Positions 5,381 to 22,905 of a DNA stretch of 34,612 nucleotides are shown here, piece after piece. The position numbers were made by a program, and so were the translations under genes. The stretch's first letter is position 1. Every line of letters starts with the position of its first letter. The DNA comes from a virus. The DNA lies in UHGV virus genome UHGV-0271976. One strand, given 5' to 3'. The notes below the pieces were generated by a model. The model had not been told where the DNA came from. It worked only from the letters and a program-made list of their open reading frames with translations, and searched no databases.

Positions 5381-5394
5381 CAGAATAATCCATC

Positions 5395-5676
5395 ATGAAC
5401 GAACAACAACAAAACGGAATAGAACGGCTTTTCATTGAATTCGCCGAAGAGTGCGGCAAGAACCCGAACCTGAACCAGGCGGCGCAGGAATTGAAGGAAA
5501 GCGTCTTTGCTGCCTCTCAAGCCGCCGGCGTTGATCCCTCCCATGCCTTCGGCGTCATCATCCGGGATATGATGCTCCTGGAATCCTTGCAGAAACGCGT
5601 GGAAGAATCCCGCAACGCCCTCACCGCCGGGAAACTGCCCGCTTTCGTCATCGAGGAAGCCCGCGCTCAACGATAA
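5395..5676 (+). CDS. Hypothetical small protein (position of a tail assembly chaperone)
   Basis: The 93-aa ORF sits directly upstream of the tape-measure-like gene. I recognise no motif. Confidence 0.3.
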   Translation: MNEQQQNGIERLFIEFAEECGKNPNLNQAAQELKESVFAASQAAGVDPSHAFGVIIRDMMLLESLQKRVEESRNALTAGKLPAFVIEEARAQR

Positions 5677-5694
5677 CCCTCCACCTTTACCACC

Positions 5695-7563
5695 ATGGCC
5701 ACCAAGAAAGAAATTGAAATCAAACTCAAGTCCACGCTGGACGGAAAAGGCGTGGAAGAAGCCAAACAGCAGATCGACGCGCTGAACAAGTCTACGGAGC
5801 AGTTGGATAAAAACAGCAAGCAGGCAACCAGGAGCGTGAAGAACATGGGGCAGGGGGCCTTGCAGGCTGCCTATTTCTTCGATGACTTGCAGTACGGCAT
5901 CCGGGGCATCATGAACAACATTCCCGGGCTGGTGATGGGATTCGGAGGCGGCGCAGGTCTGGCCGGCGCAATGTCGCTTGCCGTTCTGGCCGGGGCGAAG
6001 CTTTACGAATGGATGGGAAAAACGGAAGACAAGTCGGCGGATCTCGCCAAAAAAATGAAGGAGCATAGCAAAGAGATTGCCGAAGCTTCTCGTCAATCTA
6101 TCCGGGCAAGTTATCAGGCTTTGCAGGAATTCAACCAGCAAGAACGCACCAAGACCATTAACGAAGAGTATCAAAACTATGTAAAGGACATTACCCGGGA
6201 GTTTGAATATCAGACGGAAGAGCTCGAAAAACAAATTCGCTTGAGACGGGAGGAAGCGGCCCGCCAGAAAGGCGTTGATACACGCCAGGCGGAACTTGAC
6301 CGCGTCAACTTGAAGAATGACTACCAGGAAGGAAGAATCACCAAGAGGCAGCGAGATTACGGCTTGATGATGGTTGATCAGAATCTGGACCAGAAAATCA
6401 GACAGCGTGATTTAGGCGTGGAGCAGGCTAATTACATGGATATTGGCAAACAGCTTTCGGAGGCAGTCAAGGCCCGAGATGCTGCGGAAGCTCATGCTTT
6501 TGATATGCAGCTCAAACAAGGGAGCCTTCCTTCTCTTCAAAATATTATTGGACTTTTACAGCAGCAAGAACGTGCTCAACGGAGTATCGATGAGATAAAT
6601 GAAAAATTACCCGAAATACAAAAAGCAATACAAAGAAGAGAAATAGGAGTGGAATATGCCCCAAATGCCACTCGACGTGAGGACGCTCAACGATACTTAA
6701 TTCAAGCACAAGAGGAAAATCAACGTCTTTTAGTTGCTCGTACAGCAGCGCAAGAAGAATTAAATGCTGCCCAATCTGGATTGGGAGAATTTCAGGAGTC
6801 ATTGAGATCCGGCGGCGTAAATCTTGAATTCGACTATAGCCAAGGATCTGATATAAACAGTCGCTTTAAACAAGCATCAGTTGCAGTAGAAGAGTTTAAG
6901 AAGAATACGGACGCCGCGAAAAAACAGTTTGATGATTTAACGGAGAAAGCCGGTTCTTTGGGGGATGCAATGGCTTCGACCGAAGCATCTATCAAAAACA
7001 TGGAACAAATCGACGCTATTCAAAACCAAATAGACGCCGGCAAGGTTAAATCATTTAACATGCAAAGAGACAGGGAAGAAGCAGAGGAAGCCCGAATAAA
7101 TGAAGAAAAAATAAAGAAGGCTCGTGAACGGGCCGAAAGGGAGGCTCAAAAGCAGACCGCCGAGAGGCAGCAGGCGATGATCCGTGGCATTACCCTTGAA
7201 GGCGTTCCCGAGCATCCTACCGCCCAGCAACGCGCCCGGATTGCGGCTGCCCGCGAAGCTTTGAATGCAGGGAAGAAACGCCTTGCGGAAAGCATTTCTG
7301 ACAAAGATACGGAAATCGACCCCAGCGAGATTCAAGGGGCGTTTGACGTGATGGAAAACGTATTGAGAGAAAGCGGACAATACACTAAAAAATTGATGGA
7401 TTATTTGAAAACCATAGCAACAGCACAGACCGCCAATGTAAATGCCATTCAAGCAGATACGAAAAAATATGTAGATGCTAAATTCGAGGAAATCTTGAAG
7501 ATAGTGCAGAAGGGCAACGGAAGATTGCAAACAGGGATAAACAGGATTGCCGGAGGCTTTTAA
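5695..7563 (+). CDS. Tape-measure-like protein (long coiled coil with a Gly-rich hydrophobic segment)
   Basis: This 622-aa protein has a hydrophobic Gly-rich stretch (GLVMGFGGGAGLAGAMSLAVLAG) followed by an extended charged coiled coil. The middle third (~6480-7130) is markedly lower in GC than its flanks. Confidence 0.45.
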   Translation: MATKKEIEIKLKSTLDGKGVEEAKQQIDALNKSTEQLDKNSKQATRSVKNMGQGALQAAYFFDDLQYGIRGIMNNIPGLVMGFGGGAGLAGAMSLAVLAGAKLYEWMGKTEDKSADLAKKMKEHSKEIAEASRQSIRASYQALQEFNQQERTKTINEEYQNYVKDITREFEYQTEELEKQIRLRREEAARQKGVDTRQAELDRVNLKNDYQEGRITKRQRDYGLMMVDQNLDQKIRQRDLGVEQANYMDIGKQLSEAVKARDAAEAHAFDMQLKQGSLPSLQNIIGLLQQQERAQRSIDEINEKLPEIQKAIQRREIGVEYAPNATRREDAQRYLIQAQEENQRLLVARTAAQEELNAAQSGLGEFQESLRSGGVNLEFDYSQGSDINSRFKQASVAVEEFKKNTDAAKKQFDDLTEKAGSLGDAMASTEASIKNMEQIDAIQNQIDAGKVKSFNMQRDREEAEEARINEEKIKKARERAEREAQKQTAERQQAMIRGITLEGVPEHPTAQQRARIAAAREALNAGKKRLAESISDKDTEIDPSEIQGAFDVMENVLRESGQYTKKLMDYLKTIATAQTANVNAIQADTKKYVDAKFEEILKIVQKGNGRLQTGINRIAGGF

Positions 7564-7609
7564 CAGCTTTTAGGCTTGCACTAATGCCGGTTTATAGCAC
7601 CATACCACT

Positions 7610-8098
7610 ATGGCTAATTATTACGTCGCTTCCAACTCAAACAATGCTGAGGGCCCCTACTCTTTTGAAGAACTTGAAGCCTTGTACAAGGAAGGGAAAA
7701 TCTTTTCAGAAACTCTTGTTTGCCCTGAAGGAGGTCAGGAGTGGCTATCCTTTGGAAGGATTTATCATCTGACCAAAAACACCAACAGAAAATCAGAAGA
7801 AAAAGAAACGGAGCGGCAACAAAAGAAACGATTTGTTGAATTTATTTTAGATGAGAGAGAGAAAAAACCTGCTTGGGTGAATGAGCAAGAGCCTCTAAAA
7901 ATTACAGTAGAGGGGTTGTTTCAAGTAGTGGGAGCAATGACGATTATTGCTGGTATTGTATTATTTTTAATCAATTTTTATCATCATCAGTTTCCACTAG
8001 CCTTCATCTATTTGTTATCAGGTGCCTTCTCCTGCCTTGGCTGCTTCTGGTTCGCGAAGGTTCTGACGTTGCTCCAAAAGATCGCCGATAAGAAATAA
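7610..8098 (+). CDS. DUF4339/GYF-like domain membrane protein; moron and superinfection-exclusion-type candidate
   Basis: The N-terminus (YYVASNSNNAEGPYSFEELEALYKEGKIFSETLVCPEGGQEWLSFGRIYHL) matches the DUF4339 pattern. Two hydrophobic helices follow. The ~40% GC is well below the ~60% flanks, and the gene is inserted between tail genes. Confidence 0.5.
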   Translation: MANYYVASNSNNAEGPYSFEELEALYKEGKIFSETLVCPEGGQEWLSFGRIYHLTKNTNRKSEEKETERQQKKRFVEFILDEREKKPAWVNEQEPLKITVEGLFQVVGAMTIIAGIVLFLINFYHHQFPLAFIYLLSGAFSCLGCFWFAKVLTLLQKIADKK

Positions 8099-8149
8099 AC
8101 AACTAACCATTTTACAAGCAGCAGGAACCACGACATCACCATCAATGAC

Positions 8150-10294
8150 TTGCTGGCCCTCAAGCCGTCGAGCCTGACCCACGACCAGCAAAGCTTTTCC
8201 GCCTCCGCCATCACCGCGGTTTATCCCGTCCGCACCTTGGACGAGGTCTTGCCCTTCCAACAGTTCGATACTGTCACCATTTCCCAAAACGGGAACACCA
8301 TTCTATCCGGCCTCGTTTCCAGCATCGAAAAGACCTACAGCGGCTCTTCCCGTGCGTGGAAAATCGTCTTTTCCGATCCTTGGTATTGGCTGGACCATTG
8401 CTTTGCGCTGGATAACGACTGGAAGCCGGTCTTTTCCATGTGGAATAAAGTCAGCGGCGGGGGCGCCATCATTCCGAAGATAAGCATTTCCGCCGCGCTC
8501 TCCCGGGTGCTGAATCTCGCCAAGCACCACCCGGCGGACTACGAGCTGCGCATCAGCGATGACAAGATGCTGATTCCGTGGAACGCCTCTTGTGATACGC
8601 TGGGCAGCCTTCTTCAATCCATCCGTCACTGGTCGCCCCGCATGGTTTCCTACTATGACTACAGCGGCGCGCGCCCCAAACTCATCATCACGGACTATGA
8701 CGCCCTGACGCCCATTTCGCTTCCCTTGCAGCCATCCGGCGAGATTAAAGCCATGGACGTTTCCCTGGTCCCACGCGGCGACCTCGTGCCTCCCTGCGTG
8801 GCGATTGTCGCGGAAACGACCGGCAGCAACGGCTACCGCGTCTCCTACCTGTCCAAATACCCGAAGGACGGGGACCCGACCCTGCCGCATTCCATCGTTT
8901 ACCGTACGTCAGTAGACTTCTACTACTCCAAATACAGTTCTACCGGGGAACCGGTAGAAGATCCGCAGCCGGTGCAGGGAACCAGGGCCGGCAGCCTGTC
9001 CTACCAGCGCATGAAAGTAAGGGGGCGGAAAATTAACCAGAACGACATGATCAAGAGTTTCTGGAAACATCATTTCCCGTGGATGAAAGACGTTGGCGCG
9101 ATTGCTGTCTATGACAAGGATCCGACCATCACCGGGAAGCCCTGGGACGGAACGGAGGAAGACAAGCCGCGAGGCTACAACACCGCCGCCACAGGCTATG
9201 AACTGACGGACGGGCAAATTCATACCAAATCCATCAGGCCGCAATGGTGCAACGCCACCGTCAAGCAGCGTCTCGCCATCCCGGAAAGAGCGCCTGCCAA
9301 GTGGAGGGAGAAATTCAAGAATGTGGGGACCCTGCAAGGCGTGCCCTGCTTCTGGGAAGAATTCTCGGTGGATCTGGTCACCATGGACCGCCCCTACGCG
9401 AGCTACCCCATTGACGGCATCTACAACGGGGAACAGCCCTCCAACGGCCCGGAAGAAGGGGAATCGCCGGAACCGTCGGAAGGAGTGCCCTATGGGGACA
9501 TTGCCAAAACGGTATGGGAATCCATGCAGGAATTGCCCTGGGACGGCTCTATTTCCTTTGTCGCGCTGGGAGAAGCGCAGACGCGGCAATACATGGGCCG
9601 GCGCGTCTCGCTGCTGGGAGGAAACCCCGCTTGGCAGAACATCAACACCATGATTCAGACGGTGAGCCGCGACCTGCAAACCAACGTGATTTCCCTTTCC
9701 TACGGCGCGCCGGAACAACTAGGGATTGAAGAATGGGTAGAATTGAAGCGCGTGAATGCCACCTCGCGCACATCTTCCACGCTGGAAAACATGCAGGGGG
9801 CGCCGGAATCGCCGGAATACGGCTTTGACCCCAAGCCGGAATCCCCCACCATCAGCCAGCACATCACCAAATCCACGGGAGAATCCACGCCCGCGCCGGA
9901 ATACGGCTTCCAGGTGCGCTTGCAGAAAGATACGGAGGGGGCCATCACCGGGGCGCAAATGAAGCCCGGCGCGCTCTACCTGAACGGCTCGCTGCTCGGC
10001 AAATACCCGCAGGGGGGCGGTTCCGGTTCTTCCTGGGTGACTATCCTCCAAACCAGCGGGGAAGTATGGCTCAACGTCCACTTCGACCAGGACGCCAAAC
10101 TGACGGGCGTTGATGTCTCGGGCATCCAGGGGACCGTCTATCCGATCATGCTCGGAGAGGAAAAGCCTGACGTCAATTTCGACTATTCTTTCCAGATAGC
10201 CTACATCGAAGATGATCAGGTGACGCAGTACGCGCTGGGAATGATCCAGATACCCGTCTTCGGAGGCACCTTCTACCCCTACGGACCAGCTTAA
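8150..10294 (+). CDS. Large tail-tip / host-specificity-like structural protein
   Basis: This 714-aa protein has a TTG start and lies downstream of the tape-measure-like gene. It carries internal PESPEYGF / PAPEYGF repeats. This is a size- and context-based call. Confidence 0.35.
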   Translation: MLALKPSSLTHDQQSFSASAITAVYPVRTLDEVLPFQQFDTVTISQNGNTILSGLVSSIEKTYSGSSRAWKIVFSDPWYWLDHCFALDNDWKPVFSMWNKVSGGGAIIPKISISAALSRVLNLAKHHPADYELRISDDKMLIPWNASCDTLGSLLQSIRHWSPRMVSYYDYSGARPKLIITDYDALTPISLPLQPSGEIKAMDVSLVPRGDLVPPCVAIVAETTGSNGYRVSYLSKYPKDGDPTLPHSIVYRTSVDFYYSKYSSTGEPVEDPQPVQGTRAGSLSYQRMKVRGRKINQNDMIKSFWKHHFPWMKDVGAIAVYDKDPTITGKPWDGTEEDKPRGYNTAATGYELTDGQIHTKSIRPQWCNATVKQRLAIPERAPAKWREKFKNVGTLQGVPCFWEEFSVDLVTMDRPYASYPIDGIYNGEQPSNGPEEGESPEPSEGVPYGDIAKTVWESMQELPWDGSISFVALGEAQTRQYMGRRVSLLGGNPAWQNINTMIQTVSRDLQTNVISLSYGAPEQLGIEEWVELKRVNATSRTSSTLENMQGAPESPEYGFDPKPESPTISQHITKSTGESTPAPEYGFQVRLQKDTEGAITGAQMKPGALYLNGSLLGKYPQGGGSGSSWVTILQTSGEVWLNVHFDQDAKLTGVDVSGIQGTVYPIMLGEEKPDVNFDYSFQIAYIEDDQVTQYALGMIQIPVFGGTFYPYGPA

Positions 10295-11095: not shown

Positions 11096-12283
11096 CTAAC
11101 GGGCCAGTCCGACGGCAATCTTGCTCATGGCCTCCTGAACGTCCGACGAATCCGGGCGGAAATACACCCGCTCAATCTCTTCGGAGTCGTGTCCGACGAT
11201 GAAGCGGCACAAATCCGGGGACACCCCGGCCAGGCGCAGGACGGTCACGGCGGTCGCCCGGAGGCTGTGGAAGCTCTTTTCCGAAAGCCGGTGCCGGTCG
11301 CCTCTCACCTCTCCGGGCATCTCTCGGATAATCCCGTACGTTTTCAACAATGTCGTGAACTCCGTGGAAAGCTTGTCGGAACGTCCGCCGGCATGGGCAT
11401 GGCGAAGCGCGGCCAGGGGAAACACGTAATCGTTCACCCGGTTGAGCAGACGCCTTTCCAGAACCTCTTTCAAGGGCTGGATGATCGGCTTGTTCATGCG
11501 GCGCCGGCTCTTCTGCGTGGTCATGAAGAGGAAGGAGTTCTTCAGGTCAATCTGGTCCCATTTCAGCGTCGCCAGGTCTCCGAGGCGCTGGCCTCCGGTG
11601 TAGAGGCACACCCGCACCAGATCCGGCCATTCATCCGGGAACCGTTCAATGATGGTGTTCACTTCCTCCATCGTGAACGCGCCGCGCAGCTGCTTTTCCG
11701 CCTGGTGGTCCGCCCGGGAAGGCATGACGCCCCGGAACGGATTCCGGGAAAGAATCTCCCGGTCTACAGCGACATTGAACGCGGTGGACAGCGTGGACAC
11801 ATAGCGGATGACGGTTCCGGCGGAAACGCGCTCCATTTCCGTTTCTACAAAATCCTTCGCCATCCCTTTATTCAGGGCGGCCAGCGGCATATTCCGCCGG
11901 TCCCCCAGGAACGCCAGAAGCCGGCGGACGGCCATGCCGTCCCGCTCATAGGCCCGCTTCTTGTTTTTCCTCCCGTCCAGCCAGTCAAAAAGAAACCGCG
12001 TCACCGTCATGCCGTTCATGGTGGCTTTCAGCACGCCGGCCTGGTCCCCGGCAATGGCCTTCACCTTGTCCAGGTCAAAAACCCCGTACCGGGCTTCCTT
12101 CTCCATCTCCTGGGCGACGAGCCGCGCCCGGGCTTCATTCTGGGACATAATTGATTTCTTATTGGATCCCGGAAGCAGCGCCTTGGGAACCACGTCGATG
12201 CCGGTTGTTTTCCGAAGCTCTTTGCCGTCCAGGGAGCGGAAGACGGCCACCCATTTGTTGTTGCGTTTGATGATGCCTGCCAT
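11096..12283 (-). CDS. int: Tyrosine integrase (phage integrase family)
   Basis: The 395-aa protein has a C-terminal catalytic region with ...FHSLRATAVTVL...IVGHDS...RVYFRP (H-x-x-R, GH and the nucleophile Tyr). An N-terminal SAM-like DNA-binding region is present. Confidence 0.9.
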   Translation of the reverse strand: MAGIIKRNNKWVAVFRSLDGKELRKTTGIDVVPKALLPGSNKKSIMSQNEARARLVAQEMEKEARYGVFDLDKVKAIAGDQAGVLKATMNGMTVTRFLFDWLDGRKNKKRAYERDGMAVRRLLAFLGDRRNMPLAALNKGMAKDFVETEMERVSAGTVIRYVSTLSTAFNVAVDREILSRNPFRGVMPSRADHQAEKQLRGAFTMEEVNTIIERFPDEWPDLVRVCLYTGGQRLGDLATLKWDQIDLKNSFLFMTTQKSRRRMNKPIIQPLKEVLERRLLNRVNDYVFPLAALRHAHAGGRSDKLSTEFTTLLKTYGIIREMPGEVRGDRHRLSEKSFHSLRATAVTVLRLAGVSPDLCRFIVGHDSEEIERVYFRPDSSDVQEAMSKIAVGLAR

Positions 12284-12890
12284 AGTGCTGTACAGTCCTT
12301 AGACAATGTACAGTTGCATGTACAGGGCGCTTTTTTCTGTCAGGCGCTTTCAGGTGCGCTCAAAACTGCGCAAAATGTAGGAAAATCAAGGGTCATTCCG
12401 TCACGTGCTGACGAGAATTGGCATCGCGTACGGGATTTAGTGTCTTGTCCATAAACTTTTAGCGGGCCACATGTACAGCATACCGTATAGCACTGCCGGA
12501 AAGCCGCACCGTTTATTACTCCGTCGGAAGCTTCACGTAAAGGTCGATATGTCATGACACAGAAAAAATGAACCCTGCGAGGATAAAAAACCGCCCGCGT
12601 CTCCCGACGCGGACGGAAAAGAATAAATAGAAAGGACGTAGTCAGGAATCTGAATACGTGCCTTTTATATCACATTTTACCCGTTAGGCAACCCTTTTTT
12701 CAGCGTTTTAGGCAATGTCATGACTTGTCATCCGGTGAACGGGAAATTGATGACAAAACGTCTTAACGGGGTCACAAGACATCAAATCTCATGAAAAACT
12801 GGAAATCCTACCCCCCCTCTCCCCGCATTTATAACGCTTTAAATATTAGCGTATTAGTAACTAAATTTTCAGCAAGAAAGGGTTACGGCA
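12284..12890. promoter_or_regulatory. Repeat-rich non-coding region upstream of int; candidate attP / integrase arm sites / regulatory DNA
   Basis: No convincing ORF is present. TGTACAG occurs at 12289, 12307 and 12319. A perfect 10-bp palindrome TGTCATGACA lies at 12550-12559, with a related copy TGTCATGACTTGTCAT at 12716-12731. There is an inverted repeat TTGTCATC/GATGACAA (12727/12751) and GGCAATGTCA twice (12711, 12886). A - strand terminator and an AT-rich tract are also present. Confidence 0.4.
12591..12616 (-). terminator. Rho-independent terminator for leftward transcription (insulating int)
   Basis: Stem CCGCGTC/GACGCGG with loop TCCC, plus an outer CCG/CGG extension. On the - strand the hairpin is followed by TTTTTTAT (the A6 run at 12585-12590 on +). 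Confidence 0.45.
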
Positions 12891-13037
12891 ATGTCAGGTA
12901 ACGTAATGCTTGTGTTTTTCTTGCTGGCCGTTCTGTTCGGGTTCACTTGTTTCCGACTCGGCATTATTGAAGGTTGCCGGAGAACCACGAAAAGGATCTT
13001 GGAGAACATTTCAAAGGGGATGAAGAAAGGGGAATGA
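12891..13037 (+). CDS. Small hydrophobic membrane peptide (48 aa)
   Basis: The ORF begins with ATG and translates to MSGNVMLVFFLLAVLFGFTCFRLGIIEGCRRTTKRILENISKGMKKGE. AAGAAAGGG lies upstream. Its stop sits inside the palindrome shared with the convergent repressor-like gene. Confidence 0.3.
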   Translation: MSGNVMLVFFLLAVLFGFTCFRLGIIEGCRRTTKRILENISKGMKKGE

Positions 13038-13050
13038 ATTATTCCCCTTT
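13026..13050. terminator. Perfect 10-bp inverted repeat hairpin shared by the convergent gene ends (+ strand terminator)
   Basis: AAAGGGGAAT-gaatt-ATTCCCCTTT is followed by GTTTTTCTCTTCC on the + strand. Both convergent ORFs end inside it, at ...KKGE* and ...KNKGE*. Confidence 0.4.
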
Positions 13051-13416
13051 GTTTTTCTCTTCCTGTAACCGTTTCATAAGGAGTTCTTTATTGTCTCCTG
13101 CATATTCCAAGACGTAAATAATCCAGTCCACGATATTCATGCCGCAGGCTTTCGCATAATTATTGAATTCGAGGAATTTATCATGCGAGACCTTGAGGTT
13201 GATATCAAGATCAGCGATAGAGATTTGGCTATCGTCGGCAGGTTGGGGTTGGTTCATTAGGTTGTCAATAATGATCAGAGCCTTTTTGGGGATAGTGCGG
13301 CTTTTGGAAAACCAGTTGTTGACAACTAGGTATTTCACTCCGCATTGGTCCGCCAACCATTGCCGGGTTTTTCCGATGTCTTTAAGCCATTGATCTATCT
13401 CTTCTTTTGTGTGCAT
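13039..13416 (-). CDS. HTH (Cro/CI-type) DNA-binding protein; candidate prophage repressor
   Basis: The N-terminal HTH-like segment is GKTRQWLADQCGVKYLVVNNWFSKSRTIP. It diverges from the + strand early genes across a 130-bp intergenic region. The gene is very AT-rich (~37% GC by eye) against a ~60% GC backbone. The C-terminal half has no motif I recognise. Confidence 0.5.
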   Translation of the reverse strand: MHTKEEIDQWLKDIGKTRQWLADQCGVKYLVVNNWFSKSRTIPKKALIIIDNLMNQPQPADDSQISIADLDINLKVSHDKFLEFNNYAKACGMNIVDWIIYVLEYAGDNKELLMKRLQEEKNKGE

Positions 13417-13547
13417 GCCGATGTATTATCATCGTTTAATGACACAAGCAAGATGAAAAAAACAAGCATACAGTGATATTTTTGTCTTGCTCTACAATCA
13501 AACAATGATAAAAAGAGGGCATCAACCAACCAAATCATCACACACCC
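13417..13547. promoter_or_regulatory. Divergent promoter/operator region between the repressor-like gene and the early genes
   Basis: ACAAGCA direct repeats lie at 13444 and 13462. An inverted relative CTTGCTCT is at 13486. A TACAAT -10-like hexamer is at 13492. The region is AT-rich. Confidence 0.35.
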
Positions 13548-13739
13548 ATGATAGATACCATCCAAGTACCAATTCAAAAACTCGCTGAGTCTCCTAAAGC
13601 CAGCGGGTCAGTTATGGCCCTTTCAGTCAGGGACAACTTGCCACTGAGCGAGGCCATTATTCAGACCCTCCGCATCTTGGCTCATGATGCGACCGACAGC
13701 AAAACGCAGCCGAATCAGACCAAAACCTTCAACCGATAA
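13548..13739 (+). CDS. Hypothetical early protein
   Basis: This 63-aa ORF is the first gene after the divergent intergenic region. I recognise no motif. Confidence 0.3.
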   Translation: MIDTIQVPIQKLAESPKASGSVMALSVRDNLPLSEAIIQTLRILAHDATDSKTQPNQTKTFNR

Positions 13740-13744
13740 ACAAC

Positions 13745-14050
13745 ATGAACAACAACATAGTACCATTCAACAATGCCGCGCTTGGCTGTTCTGTCCGGAC
13801 AGTCATCATCAACAACGATCCTTGGTTTGTCGCCAAGGATGTCTGTGAGGCCTTGGAAATCAACAACACCAGCGATACTCTCAAAAAGGTATTGGATGAC
13901 GACGAAGACCGGTGCATCCGGGTTGACGGCGAACCTATTTCCTACGGCGTCGCGGTTGGACTCCTGGAGCAGATAGAGCAGGCAATCGATGAGTGGGATT
14001 TTGACCACGCTCCCCAATGCTACAACCCGGACGGACACTACGACGACTAA
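13745..14050 (+). CDS. Bro-N domain protein (anti-repressor-like, N-terminal domain only)
   Basis: IVPFNNAALGCSVRTVIINNDPWFVAKDVCEALEINNTSDTLKKVLDDDE matches the Bro-N signature (F.F....R.v...ge.WFvakDv...L...n...). The 101-aa length means only the N-domain is present. Confidence 0.6.
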   Translation: MNNNIVPFNNAALGCSVRTVIINNDPWFVAKDVCEALEINNTSDTLKKVLDDDEDRCIRVDGEPISYGVAVGLLEQIEQAIDEWDFDHAPQCYNPDGHYDD

Positions 14051-14181
14051 CTGACTTTTAACCAATCGCCCGGCCCAGGTGGGGCCTAAAACCAAAACCA
14101 AAACATCAATAGGTATATAGAGTAATACGGTCTGGCAGGCGCGGGGAAACCCGTCCGGGCGGCCAATTCAGAAGAACGAAC

Positions 14182-14493
14182 ATGAGCGAAAACGACACAA
14201 CCATGACCACCCTTGCGACCGCGCTGGAAACGCTGGCCGGAGTATTGCGGGAGCTGGCAAGCACGCCTGTTCCTTCTACGCCTGAATCGTCTTCCGTTTC
14301 CATTTTCGGATCAATCGAAAAGAAATACGCTAAAAGCTCCACCTTAGCCACTTATTATGACATTTCATCCCGTCAGATGGACAACATCCTGGCACGGGCG
14401 GGCAAGAATGTAAGAAGGCTGGAAGGAGTCGGAAAAGGAACCCTTTATAACATGGAAGACGTGGAAAAATACTTAACTAACAAAAGAAAATGA
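14182..14493 (+). CDS. HTH_17/excisionase-family DNA-binding protein with an S/T-rich N-terminus
   Basis: The C-terminal half (YAKSSTLATYYDISSRQMDNILARAGKNVRRLEGVGKGTLYNMEDVEKYL) fits the excisionase/AlpA-type winged HTH pattern. Confidence 0.45.
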   Translation: MSENDTTMTTLATALETLAGVLRELASTPVPSTPESSSVSIFGSIEKKYAKSSTLATYYDISSRQMDNILARAGKNVRRLEGVGKGTLYNMEDVEKYLTNKRK

Positions 14494-14870
14494 CCACACA
14501 TCAACACATCATTGACCGGGGCCCCTTCAAGGGGATGGTGGAAACGATCACCAACAACCCGCACCCCGCAAAGACGACGCGCTGCTACATGTGCGCAGCG
14601 CCGCTGAAAGCCTCGTCTTCATGGATGTCCCTGGTAGGGGACCATCAGGACGGCGTCTTCACCGCGCGCTTTCTGTGCCCGTTATGCGCCAGGGAACGCC
14701 TCAACGGCATCCCGGACGAAGCGGAGCGCTGCTGGAACTATACCCAAGCCGCCCAATCAGGGCCCCGGATTACCAAAATCCTCGCTTACCTGATTTTCTG
14801 GTGTGGACTGGTTACTGCCGGAGGAACATTCCTCTTCTTAATTTTCCTCCTGCTCAAAAACCTTTTTTAA
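14490..14870 (+). CDS. Zn-ribbon (CxxC...CxxC) protein with a C-terminal transmembrane helix
   Basis: It has CYMCAAP...(26 aa)...CPLCARE and a hydrophobic C-terminus ILAYLIFWCGLVTAGGTFLFLIFLLL. It overlaps the upstream gene by 4 nt. Confidence 0.4.
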   Translation: MTTHQHIIDRGPFKGMVETITNNPHPAKTTRCYMCAAPLKASSSWMSLVGDHQDGVFTARFLCPLCARERLNGIPDEAERCWNYTQAAQSGPRITKILAYLIFWCGLVTAGGTFLFLIFLLLKNLF

Positions 14871-14896
14871 CTGATTAACTAAATAAATAAAACATT

Positions 14897-15700
14897 ATGC
14901 AAAAATACAAATTTACTGGAGAAACAAAGGAGGTGTATGGCTGCACCTTGCACCAGATCGTATGCGTAACAGCGTTTGCCTCCGTCGCTGCCGGAGAGGT
15001 TGGCGGCTACATTGAAAAAGAAGTCAACCTGTCCCAAGACGGGAACGCCTGGGTCTTCGGGGACGCCGAGGTCTTCGGGGACGCCAAGGTCTCCGGGAAC
15101 GCCAAGGTCTCCGGGGACGCCAAGGTCTTCGGGGACGCCGAGGTCTGCGGGGACGCCGAGGTCTTCGGGGACGCCAAGGTCTCCGGGAACGCCAAGGTCT
15201 TCGGGAACGCCGAGGTCTGCGGGGACGCCGAGGTCTTCGGGAACGCCGAGGTCTTCGGGAACGCCGAGGTCTTCGGGGACGCCAAGGTCTTCGGGGACGC
15301 CGAGGTCCGCGGGGACGCCGAGGTCTTCGGGAACGCCGAGGTCTTCGGGAACGCCAAGGTCTCCGGGAACGCCGAGGCCTGCGGGGACGCCGAGGTCTGC
15401 GGGAACGCCGAGGTCTGCGGGAACGCCATTTTGAGACGTGGGTCCACCGAGACGGCAACCGATTACATCGTGATTGGACCCCAGGGATCGCGCCGGAGTT
15501 TTGCGACGTTGCATTTACCCTCCAATACGGTGTGCACTGGGTGTTTTGTCGGAGACTTGAATGAATTCAAGGTAGCGGTCTCCACTAGTCACAATCCTAA
15601 TCACTGTGATGACTGCAAGATCTTCAACGAGCAGTATCAGCGTGTTATCCAGGTGTTTGAATTTTACGCGAAGGACCGTCAAGACAAAGATGTTCAATGA
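14897..15700 (+). CDS. Acidic tandem hexapeptide-repeat protein (predicted beta-helix-like) with a Cys/His-containing C-terminal domain
   Basis: The 267-aa product carries 21 consecutive hexapeptides G-[DN]-A-[EK]-V-[FSC], with a net charge of about -16 across the array. The C-terminus has CTGCF...HNPNHCDDC. It shares orientation with its neighbours and has protein-like sequence on both sides of the repeat. Its stop overlaps the recT start (ATGTTCAATGA). Confidence 0.6.
   Translation: MQKYKFTGETKEVYGCTLHQIVCVTAFASVAAGEVGGYIEKEVNLSQDGNAWVFGDAEVFGDAKVSGNAKVSGDAKVFGDAEVCGDAEVFGDAKVSGNAKVFGNAEVCGDAEVFGNAEVFGNAEVFGDAKVFGDAEVRGDAEVFGNAEVFGNAKVSGNAEACGDAEVCGNAEVCGNAILRRGSTETATDYIVIGPQGSRRSFATLHLPSNTVCTGCFVGDLNEFKVAVSTSHNPNHCDDCKIFNEQYQRVIQVFEFYAKDRQDKDVQ
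15047..15427 (+). repeat. 21 x 18-nt near-identical tandem repeat, consensus GCC(G/A)AGGTCT(T/C/G)CGGG(G/A)AC
   Basis: I counted the units directly. Units differ almost only at nucleotide positions 4, 11 and 16 of each unit, and all of those changes are nonsynonymous. All third codon positions are invariant. Confidence 0.9.
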
Positions 15701-16664
15701 GCAGTTGGCCGGGCCAGCACCAACTGGTCCCCGGCCTGTTATCAATAACATGAATGTGAATACCAATAACATGAATACCCCTACAACAGAATCCCTGACT
15801 TTACAAGAGCAAGGACAGCAACTGTCCGTACTGGGAGCGTTTGCCAACAGTGAACAGTTCCAGATGGCGAAGCAGGCCGCCGAGATGCTTGCATCTTCCA
15901 GCATGGTGCCGACCACCTACCAGAATAACCCCGGTTCCTGCTTCATCGCCCTGAATACAGCCCTGCGGCTGCGGATGGATCCGCTGATGGTGATGCAGAA
16001 TTTATACGTCGTGCACGGAACTCCTTCCTGGTCGGGCAAGTTTGCCATCGCTCTTATTCAGACTTGCGGAAAGTTTAACGGCATCAAGTTCGAGGAACGC
16101 CGCGATGGAGAAAGGCTGGTTGGCATGCGCCTGGTGGCCACGAAGAAGGAAACCGGCGAAGAGGTCCGCGGCGTATGGGTGACGGAGGAAGTGGCGGATA
16201 AGGAAGGATGGCTGAAGAAGAATGGCAGCAAGTGGGTATCTATACCGGAATTGATGTACAGGTACAGGGCCGCGGCGTTTTTCGCCCGGACGGAGTGCCC
16301 GGAAGTCCTGAACGGGTTGAGCGTGGAGGGAGAGGCGGAAGATATTGCCGGCAAGAGCCAGCCGGATATTAAGCCGCCCCTGTTCAAGTCCAGGGAGATT
16401 TCCGGGGGCGACGTTGTGGATGCCGAGAAGGTTGCTGACTCCCCGCGGCAGCTGGGAGACGCGGAGGTTCCCGGCAAAGGCGACGTAGAAGTTCCGCCGC
16501 CCCACATCCGGCTGATGGAAGTTCTTTCCTGTACGGAAGATCAACTGAACAAGGCTATTGCGAAGGCCAGCGGCGACAAGGTGAAGGGATGGCACGAACT
16601 GAATGACAAGCAGAAGGAAAAGCTGGCGGCCAATCCTGACAAGCTGCAACCCTTTATCGGATAG
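15690..16664 (+). CDS. recT: RecT-family single-strand annealing protein
   Basis: The ATG at 15690 overlaps the upstream stop. The sequence ...MLASSSMVPTTYQNNPGSCFIALNTALRLRMDPLMVMQNLYVVHGTPSWSGKFAIALIQTCGKFNGIKFE... follows the RecT/Bet pattern. A PD-(D/E)XK exonuclease gene follows directly. Confidence 0.75.
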   Translation: MFNEQLAGPAPTGPRPVINNMNVNTNNMNTPTTESLTLQEQGQQLSVLGAFANSEQFQMAKQAAEMLASSSMVPTTYQNNPGSCFIALNTALRLRMDPLMVMQNLYVVHGTPSWSGKFAIALIQTCGKFNGIKFEERRDGERLVGMRLVATKKETGEEVRGVWVTEEVADKEGWLKKNGSKWVSIPELMYRYRAAAFFARTECPEVLNGLSVEGEAEDIAGKSQPDIKPPLFKSREISGGDVVDAEKVADSPRQLGDAEVPGKGDVEVPPPHIRLMEVLSCTEDQLNKAIAKASGDKVKGWHELNDKQKEKLAANPDKLQPFIG

Positions 16665-16679
16665 GAAGGAGACGACAAC

Positions 16680-17882
16680 ATGACCGATACTGTTGAAGAT
16701 GTACGTAAAGGGCTGCCCTCCGCGTCCGCGTTTGGACGTCTGGCTTTATGCCCAGGCTCGTTTACGATGGAGAAGTCCTGTCCCGACGAGAGTTCCGAGG
16801 CTGCCGCAGAAGGCACGCTGTTGCACCGCTATATGGAGTATCTTCTTTTGAAGGATGATGCAGCCGAAGAAGGAATGGAGTTTTCCTGGCATGATTTTCT
16901 GAATAGCCGGGAGTATGAGTCTGCCGAGCTGAATCATGAGCAGGTGGAGCTTTGCGGACGTGCTCTGCGTCTGCTGGATGATGTGAAAGAGAGGATCCTG
17001 GATTATCCCGATGCTTTTTTTTCTCTTGTATCCACCGAAGAACGCCGTTTCTTGTCCGACTGGATTGAAGGGGGCGAGTATTCCGGACAGTGGGACGCAC
17101 TGTTCAGAGTTGGAGTGGATCTTCTGGTACTGGATTGGAAGTTTGGCCGCGTGGCTGTGGATTCCGCCGAGGCCAACCGTCAGCTTGAAGCCCTGGTTCC
17201 GCTGGCGGCTCAAAAAGCCAATGAAGAGGGGATTATTTACAATGGCATTTACGCGGCTATCATCCAGCCACGGGTGGCTGGTCCGGCATCTGTTACGTTT
17301 TACGATGACGAGGCGATTAGCCAGGCCGAACAGGATTCTCTTGCCGTCGCCAGGGCAGCTATGGACCCGGACGCCCCGCGCTATTGCAGTGAGGCAGCCT
17401 GCCGGTATTGCCGGGCCAAGGCGGTGTGCCACGAGGCCGCGGCCATGGTGGAGCAGGCTTCCCTGATCGCTACGGACCGGGATAAGTGGGAGCTGTTTTC
17501 CCCTACCGAGAAGGTTCAGGCTTACCACCTGGCGAAGACGGCAAAGAAATGGGCGGCTGCTGTGGATTACCGGTTTGAACAGGATGTGGCCGCCGGCCTG
17601 ATTCCCGGTTTTGAGATGGCGCCCGGACGCACCAGTTTCACGGTGACGGATCCTTCCGGGGCGTTTTCCGCGCTGAATGCCGAGTTCCCGGACGAGGTGA
17701 CGGCGGAAGCGTTTGCCGGGTGCTGCAAGGTCGGCATCACGGAATTGAACAGACTGGTTCACGCGGCCCGTAAAGCGGCGGATCCGAAGGCGACCACGAA
17801 GGCCAGCCGCGAATGGCTGCGGCAGTTGCTGGCGGAGTATGGCGAATCGAAAACCACGAAGGGATCCGTGAAGGAGATTTGA
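16680..17882 (+). CDS. Cas4-like PD-(D/E)XK exonuclease with a 4-Cys (Fe-S) cluster; partner of RecT
   Basis: The nuclease core is QWDALFRVGVDLLVLDWKFG (D...D-x-K). An N-terminal Cys (LALCPGS) pairs with the C-terminal C-x5-C-x2-C-x5-C (CSEAACRYCRAKAVC), as in Cas4/AddB-type nucleases. Confidence 0.7.
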   Translation: MTDTVEDVRKGLPSASAFGRLALCPGSFTMEKSCPDESSEAAAEGTLLHRYMEYLLLKDDAAEEGMEFSWHDFLNSREYESAELNHEQVELCGRALRLLDDVKERILDYPDAFFSLVSTEERRFLSDWIEGGEYSGQWDALFRVGVDLLVLDWKFGRVAVDSAEANRQLEALVPLAAQKANEEGIIYNGIYAAIIQPRVAGPASVTFYDDEAISQAEQDSLAVARAAMDPDAPRYCSEAACRYCRAKAVCHEAAAMVEQASLIATDRDKWELFSPTEKVQAYHLAKTAKKWAAAVDYRFEQDVAAGLIPGFEMAPGRTSFTVTDPSGAFSALNAEFPDEVTAEAFAGCCKVGITELNRLVHAARKAADPKATTKASREWLRQLLAEYGESKTTKGSVKEI

Positions 17883-17919
17883 GAATACCCCCCCTTTTAA
17901 CCATCAACCATTTCATACC

Positions 17920-18420
17920 ATGCAAAAAATCAAAAAAGTTTATCTGGTCCCGTCCGTGGGAGAAAACATTCTGGCCTTCACCAATTTTTCCGGGGCCTGG
18001 AAAAACGTTTGCCAGCACCCTGACCGTTGCGTTTACACGGCCAAGGGGAAGCTGGCCGCCCGTTACGCCTCCCTGCTCGTCCAGCCCACCGTGCTGACGG
18101 CATGCGAGGATGAACCGTCAGATCCCCACATGGAAAAGCTCCAGGGAGAGATTGACGCCGTGTCCAGGGCTGTAGTGGAGTCCTGCAACCTCAAGAAGTA
18201 CGACAAGATCAGGCAAGAGGCTATTGAAGCCTCCGTTCCGCTGTCTATGAGCTTTTCCGTCAAGGTGGATTACCGTAAGTGCCGGGCGGATGCCAGCATG
18301 AGCGGAAGTATCAAGGTCAAAGGTGAGGGCGTTGCCCTGCTGCCGGATGACAGCCAGCCGGAATTTGATTTCGACGAAGAAGAACAGGAAGGAGAAGAAG
18401 ACGATGATGAAGGTTTTTAA
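17920..18420 (+). CDS. Hypothetical protein with a strongly acidic C-terminal tail ending in an aromatic residue (SSB-Ct-like)
   Basis: The C-terminus is ...DDSQPEFDFDEEEQEGEEDDDEGF. The body does not look like an OB-fold SSB. It sits between the exonuclease and RusA. Confidence 0.3.
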   Translation: MQKIKKVYLVPSVGENILAFTNFSGAWKNVCQHPDRCVYTAKGKLAARYASLLVQPTVLTACEDEPSDPHMEKLQGEIDAVSRAVVESCNLKKYDKIRQEAIEASVPLSMSFSVKVDYRKCRADASMSGSIKVKGEGVALLPDDSQPEFDFDEEEQEGEEDDDEGF

Positions 18421-18853
18421 GAACAAGCTGCTTTTGTCCGTCGTTCTTCGTCATCCGGATAAAGCGCTGCATCCTAATAACAGCATGCCCCTCTCTTCGA
18501 GGGGGGCAAAAATTGCCAACCAGATTAAAATCGACGCCAAGAAGAAGGCCCGCGGCCTGGCAAAGCTCAAGGCCATTGAGGCTGGGGCCAAAAGACTGCC
18601 CATGCACCCCAATGCCTATCGCATTTACTGGTTTTTCCAGACTGGCCGCGGGCCTGATGGCGATAATTGCGGAGCTGTCTGCAAAGCCTACATGGACGGG
18701 ATTTGCCAAGCCATAGGCATGGATGACCGTCATCTTGAATTTTTGGGTGTCAAGGTTGTCCGTGACCGGGCGAGGACTGGTTATCTGGCTATCAATTTTT
18801 ATGATCGTATTCTAGTGGATGCGGATAGAAAGGATGTCAGCAATGAGAACTGA
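18404..18853 (+). CDS. rusA: RusA-family Holliday junction resolvase
   Basis: The start at the tandem ATG at 18404 overlaps the upstream stop. ...PDGDNCGAVCKAYMDGICQAIGMDDRHL... aligns with RusA's [27 protein letters not shown] catalytic Asp/Lys block. Confidence 0.7.
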   Translation: MMKVFKNKLLLSVVLRHPDKALHPNNSMPLSSRGAKIANQIKIDAKKKARGLAKLKAIEAGAKRLPMHPNAYRIYWFFQTGRGPDGDNCGAVCKAYMDGICQAIGMDDRHLEFLGVKVVRDRARTGYLAINFYDRILVDADRKDVSNEN

Positions 18854-19049
18854 ACTGAATTTCGAAGAAGGGATGAATCTGATAACCACCTTGCCCGAAA
18901 GCGGGCTGCTGCGCGTTGAATTCTCCATCCGGCACTGTTTAGAATATCCAGAAGATGCGCAAAAATTGGCCCGGCACTTTAGGTTTTGCGCTGCACACTT
19001 GGATTCTTTGGCAGAAATCATGCAGAAGAAAGGAGGGGCGGAACAGTGA
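18843..19049 (+). CDS. Hypothetical small protein
   Basis: The ATG at 18843 overlaps the rusA 3' end. The 68-aa product is MRTELNFEEGMNLITTLPESGLL.... Confidence 0.3.
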   Translation: MRTELNFEEGMNLITTLPESGLLRVEFSIRHCLEYPEDAQKLARHFRFCAAHLDSLAEIMQKKGGAEQ

Positions 19050-19252
19050 AAACGACTTACGATGTTATTATTTGGATTGCCACGATAAACAGAGAAACAC
19101 ACCTGATTGAACCGAAAGATATTTTAATTGCTCACGGTTTGAGAACAAAGCATTCCGCCCGGAAATACATTGAATTTTATAAGGAAGAATACGACCAGAA
19201 AGGAAATAAGTATGAAATCCGCGTGTCAGATGGAAAGGAGGGGGAATCATGA
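19046..19252 (+). CDS. Hypothetical small AT-rich protein translationally coupled to the C5 methyltransferase
   Basis: GTG at 19046 overlaps the upstream TGA. The 68-aa gene has ~38% GC. Its 3' end supplies the GGAAAGGAGGGGGAATC SD for the methyltransferase (ATGA overlap at 19249-19252). Confidence 0.3.
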   Translation: MKTTYDVIIWIATINRETHLIEPKDILIAHGLRTKHSARKYIEFYKEEYDQKGNKYEIRVSDGKEGES

Positions 19253-20772
19253 AATACCTTTCCGTCTGCTCCGGCATTGAGGCCGCCTCCGTGGCTTGGG
19301 AATCCCTGGGATGGGAACCCGTGGCCTTTTCAGAAATCGAACCCTTTCCGTCCGCCGTACTCGCCGAGCGGTTCCCGGGCGTTCCCAACCTCGGCGATAT
19401 GACCAGATATGAACAATGGAATATACCAGCAATTAACCTTTTGGTCGGAGGAACCCCCTGCCAGGCGTTCAGCGTCGCCGGAAAGCGAGGCAGCCTCGCC
19501 GACGACCGGGGAAACCTGTGTCTCACCTTCTGCCGCATGGCGGACCATTTCAAGCCCAAGTGGGTGCTGTGGGAAAACGTTCCCGGAGTCCTTTCCACGC
19601 CGGATAATGCGTTTGGATGCTTCCTGGGCGCTCTTTGCGGAGCTGACGCCCCCGTCATCCCTCCAGGGGGAGGGAGGAAGCACCCCAATAGCGGTGTGGT
19701 GGCCGGACCCAAAAGAACCGTGGCGTGGAGGGTGCTTGACGCCCAATGGCACCGAGTTCCCCAGCGAAGAAAACGTGTGTTTGTCCTGGCTGTGGCAGGC
19801 GCTGGAAACTGGGCCAGTGCCGACGCGCTTTTACCTGTCGGCGAGCGCGTGCCGGGGAATCTTGAGGCGTGCCGAAAGGCGTGGCAAGAAGCTGCCGGAA
19901 ATGCTGGAAGCCGCATTGAAGGCTCGCATTGGGATGGAGAGAGAGTCCATCCCACCTTGTACGCCCACAAGTCAGGAGTCGGCTTGAGCGACCAGGAGAT
20001 TTTCAGCCAGCGCGGGGCTTATCTGGTGCCCGATGTGGCGCCCACCCTTGACGGCAGCTATGGCGACAAATGGACGGGCGATCAGTATTGTTTTCGTGAT
20101 GGATTTTTTGTCTATGAAAACCACGCTCAGGATTCCCGCGTCCGAGAAATGGGAGATGTCTGCTCCACCGTGTCGGCCAAGTACGGCACAGGGGGCGGCA
20201 ATACGCCGATTGTGGTATTTACCCAAAACGACGCGGGACGGGATGCCTCTATTGACGTGGCTCCGACATTGCGGAGCGGTCATGGCGGCGGAGCCGTCAA
20301 TCAATGCGTGTGCCTGCCTGTGGACATACGCAACGCCATACGGCAGAGCGATAACGACGTGACCGGGAAAGGCTGGGGAGACGTGGGAGACCCCATGTAC
20401 ACCCTGACGGCGGGCGGTAATACTCCGGGGGTGTGTTGCATCCAAGGTGATATCGCGGCAGGCCGAAGAGGGGCCCAGCATGGGATGGGAGTTTGTGAGG
20501 ATGTATCGTTTTCATTGCTCACGTCCTCGCCTCATTGCGTGGCCTACAATTATGTCGTGCGCCGCCTGACACCGCGGGAGTGCGAGCGTTTGCAGGGCTT
20601 CCCGGATGACTGGACACTGATACCGTGGAGGGGCAAACCCGCTGCGGATTGCCCGGACAGTCACCGCTATAAGGCCGTAGGTAACAGCATGGCCGTGCCC
20701 GTCATGTGGTACATTGGCCGGAGAATTCAGATTGTGGAAAGGAGACATTATGAAGGACTGGACAGGGAATAA
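19249..20772 (+). CDS. DNA (cytosine-5)-methyltransferase with a very large variable region (orphan; no restriction partner seen)
   Basis: Motif I-like LSVCSGIE, motif IV GGTPCQAFSVAGKR, motif VI VLWENVPGV and the C-terminal motif X AVGNSMAVPV are all present. The region between motifs VIII and IX is roughly 300 aa in a 507-aa protein. Confidence 0.9.
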   Translation: MKYLSVCSGIEAASVAWESLGWEPVAFSEIEPFPSAVLAERFPGVPNLGDMTRYEQWNIPAINLLVGGTPCQAFSVAGKRGSLADDRGNLCLTFCRMADHFKPKWVLWENVPGVLSTPDNAFGCFLGALCGADAPVIPPGGGRKHPNSGVVAGPKRTVAWRVLDAQWHRVPQRRKRVFVLAVAGAGNWASADALLPVGERVPGNLEACRKAWQEAAGNAGSRIEGSHWDGERVHPTLYAHKSGVGLSDQEIFSQRGAYLVPDVAPTLDGSYGDKWTGDQYCFRDGFFVYENHAQDSRVREMGDVCSTVSAKYGTGGGNTPIVVFTQNDAGRDASIDVAPTLRSGHGGGAVNQCVCLPVDIRNAIRQSDNDVTGKGWGDVGDPMYTLTAGGNTPGVCCIQGDIAAGRRGAQHGMGVCEDVSFSLLTSSPHCVAYNYVVRRLTPRECERLQGFPDDWTLIPWRGKPAADCPDSHRYKAVGNSMAVPVMWYIGRRIQIVERRHYEGLDRE

Positions 20773-22871: not shown

Positions 22872-22905
22872 CCCTGGAATCTCGTATACCCTGGAATCTC
22901 GTATA
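22872..22905. repeat. Perfect tandem direct repeat 2 x 17 bp (CCCTGGAATCTCGTATA)
   Basis: I read it directly. It exactly fills the gap between the convergent stops of the DnaC-like gene (TAG at 22869-22871) and the Cro-like gene (ORF end 22909). Confidence 0.85.

Follow-up and report, generated by a model that had tools for sequence, protein, structure and literature searches.

A gene of 18-nt tandem repeats encoding a length-variable hexapeptide solenoid in an Akkermansia phage or prophage

The stretch of DNA analysed here, UHGV virus genome UHGV-0271976 (34,612 nucleotides, hereafter the window), is an Akkermansia muciniphila phage or prophage, and our subject is one of its genes, an open reading frame (ORF) at 14897-15700 that contains 21 near-identical 18-nt repeats in tandem. 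We show that its product is a cytoplasmic early accessory protein in which a conserved N-terminal cap and a conserved alpha/beta C-terminal domain of ~80 amino acids (aa) flank a hexapeptide solenoid; the more 18-nt units the gene has, the longer the solenoid. Judged by its sequence, the protein is a member of a catalogued phage family of YdcK-type beta-solenoids; it is neither an orphan nor the first of a novel family. As to its role, we tentatively suggest, at somewhat less than an even chance, a non-enzymatic solenoid of variable length that would interfere with a host protein early in infection. The gene and its parts are as follows:

14897-15700, + strand: complete gene (267 aa) made of the N-terminal cap, a 21-unit hexapeptide solenoid and the C-terminal domain; matches PHROG 5070 and 7964
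14897-15040, + strand: N-terminal cap and first solenoid turn (aa 1-48); homologous to the YdcK N-terminus and modelled by AlphaFold2 (AF2) with a predicted local distance difference test score (pLDDT) of ~90
15041-15418, + strand: array of 21 head-to-tail 18-nt units encoding G-[D/N]-A-[E/K/W]-[V/A]-[F/S/C/R]; 11 DNA unit types
15419-15460, + strand: partial 22nd unit (GNA) and linker ILRRGSTETAT, where AF2 confidence is low
15461-15697, + strand: C-terminal alpha/beta domain (aa 189-267), delimited by AF2 and family alignments, with Cys216 and Tyr247 invariant

Against the PHROG profiles, the window protein matched PHROG 5070 (E 2.2e-79) and PHROG 7964 (E 1.3e-75, residues 1-260 against profile positions 25-266 of 269), and PHROG 20532 matched the part that holds the C-terminal domain (residues 163-259); all three are catalogued without a function. 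A phmmer search of the PDB found the YdcK structures 2f9c and 2pig (E 1e-16 over residues 4-133). The NCBIfam model for YdcK_fam (NF040481) gave 83.3 bits over residues 13-131, aligned to profile positions 21-138 of 326, against an equivalog cutoff of 350; the window protein is therefore not a YdcK ortholog. Against the Pfam family PF18836 (B_solenoid_ydck) it scored 27.0 bits (E 3.4e-6), slightly under the gathering score of 30; relatives at 40-50% identity match this family at 50-130 bits, and many database homologs carry a precomputed match to it. The profile searches that had been proposed against left-handed beta-helix (LbH), bactofilin and pentapeptide families were run as well. Hexapep (PF00132) gave no Pfam match at E up to 1, LpxA (TIGR01852) scored 17.9 bits against a cutoff of 231, and Bactofilin (PF04519) scored 24.1 bits against a gathering score of 27.9, with relatives reaching 47 bits and so passing the threshold. 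The Pentapeptide family of Pfam gave no match, and the period of 18 nt corresponds to six residues, not the five of the pentapeptide pattern [S,T,A,V][D,N][L,F][S,T,R][G]. These results, together with the strands described below, bear out what the earlier note had read from the letters alone: a phage early gene for a hexapeptide-repeat beta-solenoid, unlike the degenerate LbH acyltransferases of housekeeping metabolism.

In the full-length AF2 model, confidence is high for the cap (residues 1-50, pLDDT ~90) and for the C-terminal domain (residues 190-267). The repeat region in between is modelled as strands of ~4 residues recurring every six residues, at a pLDDT of 35-50. At such values, neither the handedness of the helix nor its charge stripes are readable from the model, so the structure prediction that the earlier note called for yielded the six-residue spacing of short strands. 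With these low-confidence repeats included, a Foldseek comparison of the full model with the PDB placed 2pig first (E 8.6e-4), and no other entry had E < 0.001. In the family alignment, the cap residues G33, G36, G37 and N44 are invariant.

The family is widespread. In a search of a 5.8-billion-protein collection, 6221 of the 8000 candidates scored had E <= 1e-3, and homologs occur in phages of many phyla. By tblastn, members were found in 87 deposited phage records, from phages of Streptococcus (including Sfi19 orf229 and Sfi18 gp229), Bacillus, Vibrio, Xanthomonas, Bacteroides, Liberibacter, Mycobacterium and others, and on 44 plasmid records. The phage records annotate them as hypothetical or as acyltransferase, glycerol kinase, MFS transporter, acyl carrier protein or LpxD; such labels contradict one another and were thus evidently assigned automatically. 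In five Vibrio phages (MG592419, MG592418, MG592510, MG592511 and MG592579), homologous hexapeptide arrays carry 'CRISPR_spacer' features, evidently a false CRISPR call on coding tandem repeats. Among the plasmids, Streptococcus salivarius plasmid NZ_CP054155.1 has 14 matching places by tblastn, and Bartonella tribocorum pBT01 (L088) has five, at 4920-8657, which fall on five consecutive 'hypothetical' genes. These five genes are probably tandem paralogs of the family; the cluster lies 2.4 kb from a type ISP restriction-modification gene. Another paralog, of 469 aa, stands two genes downstream of the family gene at locus L035 (3195-4601).

Tandem Repeats Finder (TRF) reported the repeats of the gene as one tandem array at 15040-15427, with a period of 18, 21.6 copies, 90% matches and no indels. 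Read in the frame of the ORF at 14897-15700, it resolves into 21 complete G-[D/N]-A-x-V-x units at 15041-15418, as assembled, followed by a partial 22nd unit (GNA) and then by non-repetitive sequence. The 21 copies that the earlier note placed at 15047-15427 are the same array in another register, and its formula missed three units: unit 1 (GNAWVF, with TGG), unit 15 (GDAEVR, with CGC) and unit 19 (GNAEAC, with GCC). The 21 units comprise 11 distinct DNA types. They differ at six nucleotide columns, all at codon position 1 or 2, and the third positions are invariant, so the remark that the array holds no synonymous difference was correct. Taken alone, the window array gives only a borderline signal (by column count, C(12,6)/C(18,6) = 0.05), because a few mutations copied by unit duplication, ~8 events, would suffice. 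When recomputed, the net charge of the array was again -16; that of the whole protein is -19, with an isoelectric point (pI) of 4.51. Two short tandem duplications were also found elsewhere in the window by TRF, at 22872-22905 (17 nt x 2, 100% identical) and 26549-26577 (15 nt x 1.9).

The third-position invariance becomes robust through its recurrence in relatives. In 12 arrays of 12-39 units from at least eight lineages, no third-position column is polymorphic, against 53 first- or second-position columns; for the pooled columns, (2/3)^53 is about 5e-10. These lineages use different codons for the same residues (GGC AAT GCA vs GGG AAC GCC). The earlier suggestion of repeats homogenised at the DNA level and diversified in their amino acids is thereby extended from one gene to several lineages. 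More broadly, the units of most arrays in 79 IMG/VR loci have 80-91% identity to the consensus of their own array, and variability falls mainly on codon positions 1 and 2. Arrays differ in the synonymous diversity among their units, from 0 to ~0.7, and where it is below ~0.3, replacement diversity is mostly 0.15-0.30. The ratio of replacement to synonymous diversity (pN/pS) is above 3 in 18 of 80 arrays, and old, degenerate arrays have values below 1. Rare synonymous variants do occur in sister alleles (GCT in L002, GAT in L003 to L006).

Within the hexad, the variable positions are 2 (D/N), 4 (E/K/R/W/Q and others) and 6 (F/S/Y/C), and the Ala and Val are fixed. By analogy with the LbH repeat pattern, residues 2, 4 and 6 would face outward and the fixed Ala and Val inward, in which case alleles would differ in both the length and the surface of the rod. 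From this pattern we infer concerted evolution by unit turnover combined with selection for a varied surface. In-frame gain and loss of units, through slippage or through unequal or single-strand-annealing recombination, would homogenise the DNA, and selection would at the same time keep the surface of the solenoid heterogeneous. A target of a diversity-generating retroelement (DGR) was also considered and rejected. The 34.6-kb window holds no second copy of the array and no template repeat, which excludes a DGR-type template within it; moreover, the variable columns include G/A, T/C/G and C/T, and the differences lie between tandem units, not between a template and a variable region. No reverse transcriptase is annotated among ORFs 11096-20772 in the PHROG scan, in which no search was aimed at one.

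Comparison with related phages, which the earlier note had recommended, shows how freely the array changes. Akkermansia alleles consist of a common cap and C-terminal domain with differing unit numbers: 1 to 17 in 50 protein-database clusters, 18 and 19 in IMG/VR contigs, and 21 in the window, which has the longest array seen in this lineage and an unusually acidic one. The predicted in-frame copy-number variation is thus supported among alleles with identical flanks. In the contigs L085 (12 units) and L086 (5 units), the 744-nt 5' flank is 100% identical to the window, and in both of these and in L087 (3 units), a 289-nt 3' part is identical. The first eight units of L085 equal those of the window, except for an E to D change in unit 2. 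Beyond their number, the units of Akkermansia alleles also differ in order and type, and similar length series are found in unrelated lineages, in isolate genomes and in cultured phages.

The entire gene can also be absent. Akkermansia phage DTMo-2021a is 94% identical across the region and lacks the repeat gene; there, a GC-rich hairpin and RecT come straight after a homolog (131 aa) of the upstream ORF, ORF126. We conclude that the gene is an insertable accessory cassette, as its placement in an accessory slot had implied. The elements bordering the cassette, and the two recombination genes beyond it, are:

14490-14870, + strand: ORF126, left cassette boundary, with a homolog in DTMo-2021a
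15707-15736, + strand: GC-rich hairpin, right cassette boundary (fold ~ -21 kcal/mol, z -2.5)
15750-16664, + strand: RecT-like single-strand annealing protein (SSAP), PHROG 561 (E 6e-64), start kept in relatives
16680-17882, + strand: PD-(D/E)XK exonuclease, the partner of RecT, PHROG 69 (E 4e-34)

ORF126 had no PHROG or PADLOC match; its sequence shows CxxC…CxxC motifs and, towards the C-terminus, a hydrophobic segment, and it is kept in Akkermansia phages with and without the repeat gene. The hairpin is likewise kept in relatives, including DTMo-2021a. It is not followed by a T-run and is therefore not a canonical intrinsic terminator; it may instead be an attenuator, an RNA processing site or a recombination site. 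The proposal that the repeat gene is translationally coupled to recT did not survive the comparison. Only in the window is the overlapping ATG at 15690 in frame with recT, where it would add 20 N-terminal residues. In relatives, one extra G follows the stop codon of the repeat gene, which puts the equivalent ATG out of frame, and the RecT called in L085 to L087 (304 aa) starts at the counterpart of the 15750 ATG, 50 nt after the repeat gene. With the frame from 15690 broken by this one-base indel and the conserved hairpin lying between the two genes, coupling is not supported; the missing G of the window could be a real variant or a homopolymer sequencing error.

The C-terminal domain is the other conserved part of the protein. 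Modelled alone by AF2 (pLDDT 86, predicted template modelling score 0.77), it has four strands followed by two helices, with the motif DYxxxGPxGSRxxxTT...TGCFxGxLxEF...TH...Y, in which only one Cys (C216) and one Tyr (Y247) are invariant. The Cys/His-containing domain described earlier is thus a conserved domain; its HCDDC element is missing even in sister Akkermansia alleles. No relative was found in Pfam, the sole profile-search match in the PDB was a designed protein and was rejected as spurious, and the BFVD matches were only uncharacterised phage proteins of the same family. To map the distribution of the domain, we combined a HMMER scan of 1.84 billion representative proteins with BFVD. 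Besides YdcK-type hexapeptide solenoids, the rods that carry it include true pentapeptide repeats (P0147, P0168) and other short-repeat solenoids (P0153, P0159, P0165); it also follows a different N-terminal cap (P0148, P0164) or stands alone (P0142, P0145). The constant element is therefore the C-terminal domain, and the kind and length of the rod vary. Cap and solenoid, for their part, are also found with other C-terminal modules: DUF3310 (L056), a DUF5758-like module (L055) and a Cys-rich domain of ~105 aa (L032), which makes the solenoid a reusable module. By eye, the C-terminal sequences of L062 and L070 are similar to the DUF5758-like one of L055. The repeat dynamics and the common C-terminal domain are striking, and we found no description of them in the literature searched.

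In the window, the gene order is an integrase and a repressor-like gene (both on the - strand), a Bro-N/Ant-like gene, two small ORFs, the repeat gene, RecT and the PD-(D/E)XK exonuclease, with a DNA methyltransferase further downstream. Flanked in this way by repressor-like and Bro-N/Ant-like genes and by RecT, the gene does sit between the immunity region and recT, where the earlier note had put it. In L085 to L087, the orthologs of the exonuclease carry PF12705 (PDDEXK_1) and DUF2800. In other Akkermansia phages, the gene precedes a Bet-like SSAP, an exonuclease and a resolvase; in 19-20 related metagenomic phage contigs from IMG/VR, it is preceded by Mu Gam, Erf and NinB/Orf and followed by a resolvase or HNH gene. 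It stands before RecT in Javan174, between cro and a Mu Gam gene with a Sak4-like SSAP in Sfi19 (where AcrIIA6 is 2 kb away), and after a recombinase and exonuclease in a Mannheimia phage, and in mycobacteriophage Boilgate it has HNH and primase genes next to it. Of the 150 neighbours counted at 25 non-redundant loci, eight are paralogs of the gene, more than of any other kind. The position is thus an early DNA-metabolism or accessory region, and the link to recombination modules is recurrent, not obligatory. Since the association with recombination genes is real in several lineages and not general, we use it as supporting context only.

Two further observations concern the DNA downstream. An ORF of 166 aa after the exonuclease (17920-18420, + strand) has a very acidic tail, …EEEQEGEEDDDEGF, resembling the C-terminal tails of single-stranded DNA-binding proteins (SSB), and had no PHROG or PADLOC match. 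The DNA methyltransferase region (~19231-20747; 19249-20772 in the window) is 90% identical to Akkermansia phage Chantilly (ON453895.1). The rest of the 10-kb query does not share this identity, which points to mosaic exchange between Akkermansia phages.

Several known systems resemble the window protein in part. Closest is YdcK of Salmonella and E. coli (2f9c, 2pig; NF040481; PF18836), which shares a homologous cap and first turns and the same type of hexapeptide solenoid. It is a chromosomal protein of 326 aa with degenerate repeats and without the C-terminal domain bearing the GCF motif, whereas the window array consists of near-perfect DNA repeats and varies in length. The phage proteins Sfi19 orf229, Javan174_0012, the phiAGATE 'hexapeptide repeat transferase-like' protein and Boilgate gp64 (PHROG 5070/7964/20532) have the same order of cap, solenoid and C-terminal domain and the same early-region location. 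All are hypothetical or mis-annotated, and the window array is longer (in Akkermansia) and unusually acidic. MfpA, Qnr and AlbG are likewise regular beta-solenoid rods, and the C-terminal domain of our protein also occurs on pentapeptide repeats, but their period is five instead of six, their solenoid is of another type, and the acidity that the window allele shares with them is not conserved in its family; we detected no homology between the window protein and any of the three.

The mode of evolution recalls two other systems. Transcription activator-like (TAL) effector repeats consist of near-identical DNA units that vary at a few specificity positions and in number. The window array likewise has near-identical units with few variable positions, but this is an analogy of evolutionary mode only: fold and origin are unrelated, the TAL unit has 34 aa against six here, and nothing observed in the array suggests that its variable residues read a polymer. 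In the case of NeuO, a true enzyme, a 7-nt repeat unit at the 5' end of the gene switches expression on and off; in the window, the unit is 18 nt, stays in frame and builds the solenoid itself. NeuO is an O-acetyltransferase of prophage CUS-3, a hexapeptide-repeat beta-helix whose gene has a variable-number tandem repeat (PMC3046976).

On the reading that we tentatively prefer, the solenoid would have no catalytic part and would present a host protein with a binding, decoy or spacer surface; the C-terminal domain would be a constant functional or oligomerisation module. The target would most likely be a host defence or DNA-processing factor, met while the recombination and replication genes are expressed, and for the strongly acidic rod of the window allele, nucleic-acid mimicry would be one possible mode of action. 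We consider the solenoid non-enzymatic because it has no Hexapep match, scores 17.9 against 231 for LpxA and lacks the loops that form acyltransferase active sites. In favour of the reading as a whole we also count the family and fold, the dispensable gene, the changing array length, diversity confined to putatively exposed positions, the constancy of the C-terminal domain, and an early setting suggestive of conflict with the host, with AcrIIA6 or a type ISP gene near some members and tandem paralogs as the commonest neighbour. Several points weigh against this interpretation. The Cys and Tyr of the C-terminal domain, with its near-invariant Ser, Arg, Thr and His, could be catalytic, for which reason we limit the term non-enzymatic to the solenoid. 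Recombination genes are a minority of the neighbours in the 25 non-redundant loci and lie near the gene in ~8 of 47 non-redundant locus groups by BLAST, so its position may simply reflect the 'early region'. PADLOC had no match for the repeat gene or three of its neighbours, and we accordingly rejected the gene as a component of a defence system. A soluble decoy would not usually expose ladders of Phe, Tyr, Trp and Cys, which may instead be oligomer or filament interfaces, and part of the copy-number range may come from array collapse in short-read assemblies. To these must be added the low AF2 confidence of the repeats and the literature searched, in which no function for YdcK, PF18836 or the phage homologs was found, nor any functional study of hexapeptide or pentapeptide phage proteins or of Akkermansia prophage repeats.

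The earlier note had suggested a DNA mimic. We considered a Gam- or Ocr-like one, in which the acidic rod would imitate duplex DNA, block RecBCD/AddAB, a restriction-modification or BREX enzyme or a topoisomerase and so protect linear phage DNA and the pathway of RecT and exonuclease. We consider this unlikely. The window allele is indeed strongly acidic (pI 4.51, array charge -16), and the gene is accessory, fast evolving and directly upstream of recT and the exonuclease, the position of gam in lambda. Pentapeptide-repeat proteins that have been characterised, namely MfpA, Qnr and AlbG, act as DNA mimics, and true pentapeptide repeats are fused to the same C-terminal domain (P0147, P0168). 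However, family members vary in array charge between -18 and +7 and have a median pI of 5.5, with 20% of homologs above pI 7; acidity is therefore a property of the window allele and not of the family, which weakens the argument from charge. Length steps of a single hexad would also shift the face register by 120 degrees and scramble any face-specific pattern, no period-3 charge stripe is seen in the unit order (by eye only), and alleles of 1-3 units would be too short for mimicking DNA. Furthermore, a Mu Gam-like end-protection gene coexists with the family gene in the IMG/VR Erf group and in Sfi19. A shade less likely still is an accessory role within the recombination module, with the protein as a scaffold, mediator or end-binding partner of SSAP and exonuclease instead of a host-directed inhibitor. 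It would fit the occurrence of the gene next to at least five non-homologous SSAP types (RecT, Bet-like, Erf, Sak4-like and the Mannheimia 'recombinase') and beside NinB/Orf, Mu Gam and resolvases. But DTMo-2021a, 94% identical, manages with the same RecT and exonuclease although it lacks the gene; at most non-redundant loci no recombination gene is detectable in the vicinity; and other members adjoin primase, helicase or HNH genes or sit in accessory regions of plasmids.

We regard as improbable a self-assembling structural protein, either a bactofilin-like filament or a trimeric LbH rod, that would organise phage DNA or a replication compartment. YdcK is classed as a trimeric LpxA-like protein (PMC4372379), and the exposed aromatic and Cys ladders could be packing surfaces. 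There are also weak Bactofilin matches, at 24 bits here and up to 47 bits in relatives. Bactofilins polymerise head to tail, and capped ends would block this. In the AF2 model, folded domains cap both ends of the solenoid; with a score below the gathering threshold as well (24.1 vs 27.9), we rejected membership of the Bactofilin family. In addition, free variation in steps of one third of a turn is hard to fit to a defined lattice. Equally improbable, in our estimate, is that the array is real and its 21-unit length and the range of 1-21 units are assembly artefacts. The near-identical units do extend over 378 nt, most relatives were assembled from short-read metagenomes (e.g. MEGAHIT k141 contigs), and the exact 267-aa protein is missing from the protein collection searched. 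Yet the alleles differ in the order and types of their units and not in number alone, and continuous length series exist in many unrelated lineages, in isolate genomes and in cultured phages. Two further explanations have hardly any probability left. An ordinary LbH acyltransferase would agree with homologs labelled 'putative acyltransferase', 'LpxD' or 'hexapeptide transferase-like', but the scores (no Hexapep match, LpxA 17.9 vs 231, YdcK_fam 83 vs 350) and the 21 uninterrupted near-identical hexads, without loop insertions for substrate binding, led us to reject it. The array might also act as DNA, as iterons or an origin, a recombination hotspot or a DGR target, with the ORF incidental; it consists of 21 direct 18-bp repeats of ~90% identity, and homologous Vibrio phage arrays were mis-annotated as CRISPR arrays. 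We rejected this role. In old arrays, where synonymous diversity (pS) reaches 0.7 and replacement diversity (pN) stays below it, the DNA has decayed and the hexapeptide pattern, cap and C-terminal domain are kept, so selection acts on the protein. The window has no second copy of the array or template repeat, and only the frame of ORF 14897-15700 encodes a protein with homologs in many phyla.

Returning to the length-variable solenoid directed at a host protein, we also considered a bolder form of it, which we think unlikely to the same degree as the DNA mimic. Here, the C-terminal domain would be a constant effector or anchor carried on a rod whose length and three-position surface code are quickly reshuffled, as in a TALE-like inhibitor or decoy. 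Recombination between repeats might be driven by the SSAP of the neighbouring phage genes, and tuning of the contingency type would let the protein track variable host defence or DNA-repair targets.

Whatever its role, this is a very large family, situated in early regions that house genes for host takeover and anti-defence, and our searches found no member with a function. Its arrays have been taken for CRISPR, and its proteins for acyltransferases, glycerol kinase and transporters, and array lengths are likely mis-assembled from short reads. The variation between 1 and 21 units, the replacement-only diversity at three hexad positions and the C-terminal domain common with pentapeptide-repeat proteins are testable features. 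If the reshuffled-rod interpretation is true, the presence of the same C-terminal domain on hexapeptide and pentapeptide rods would mean that the selected unit is a rigid repeat rod plus this domain, and such a combinatorial solenoid would be a previously undescribed anti-defence architecture.

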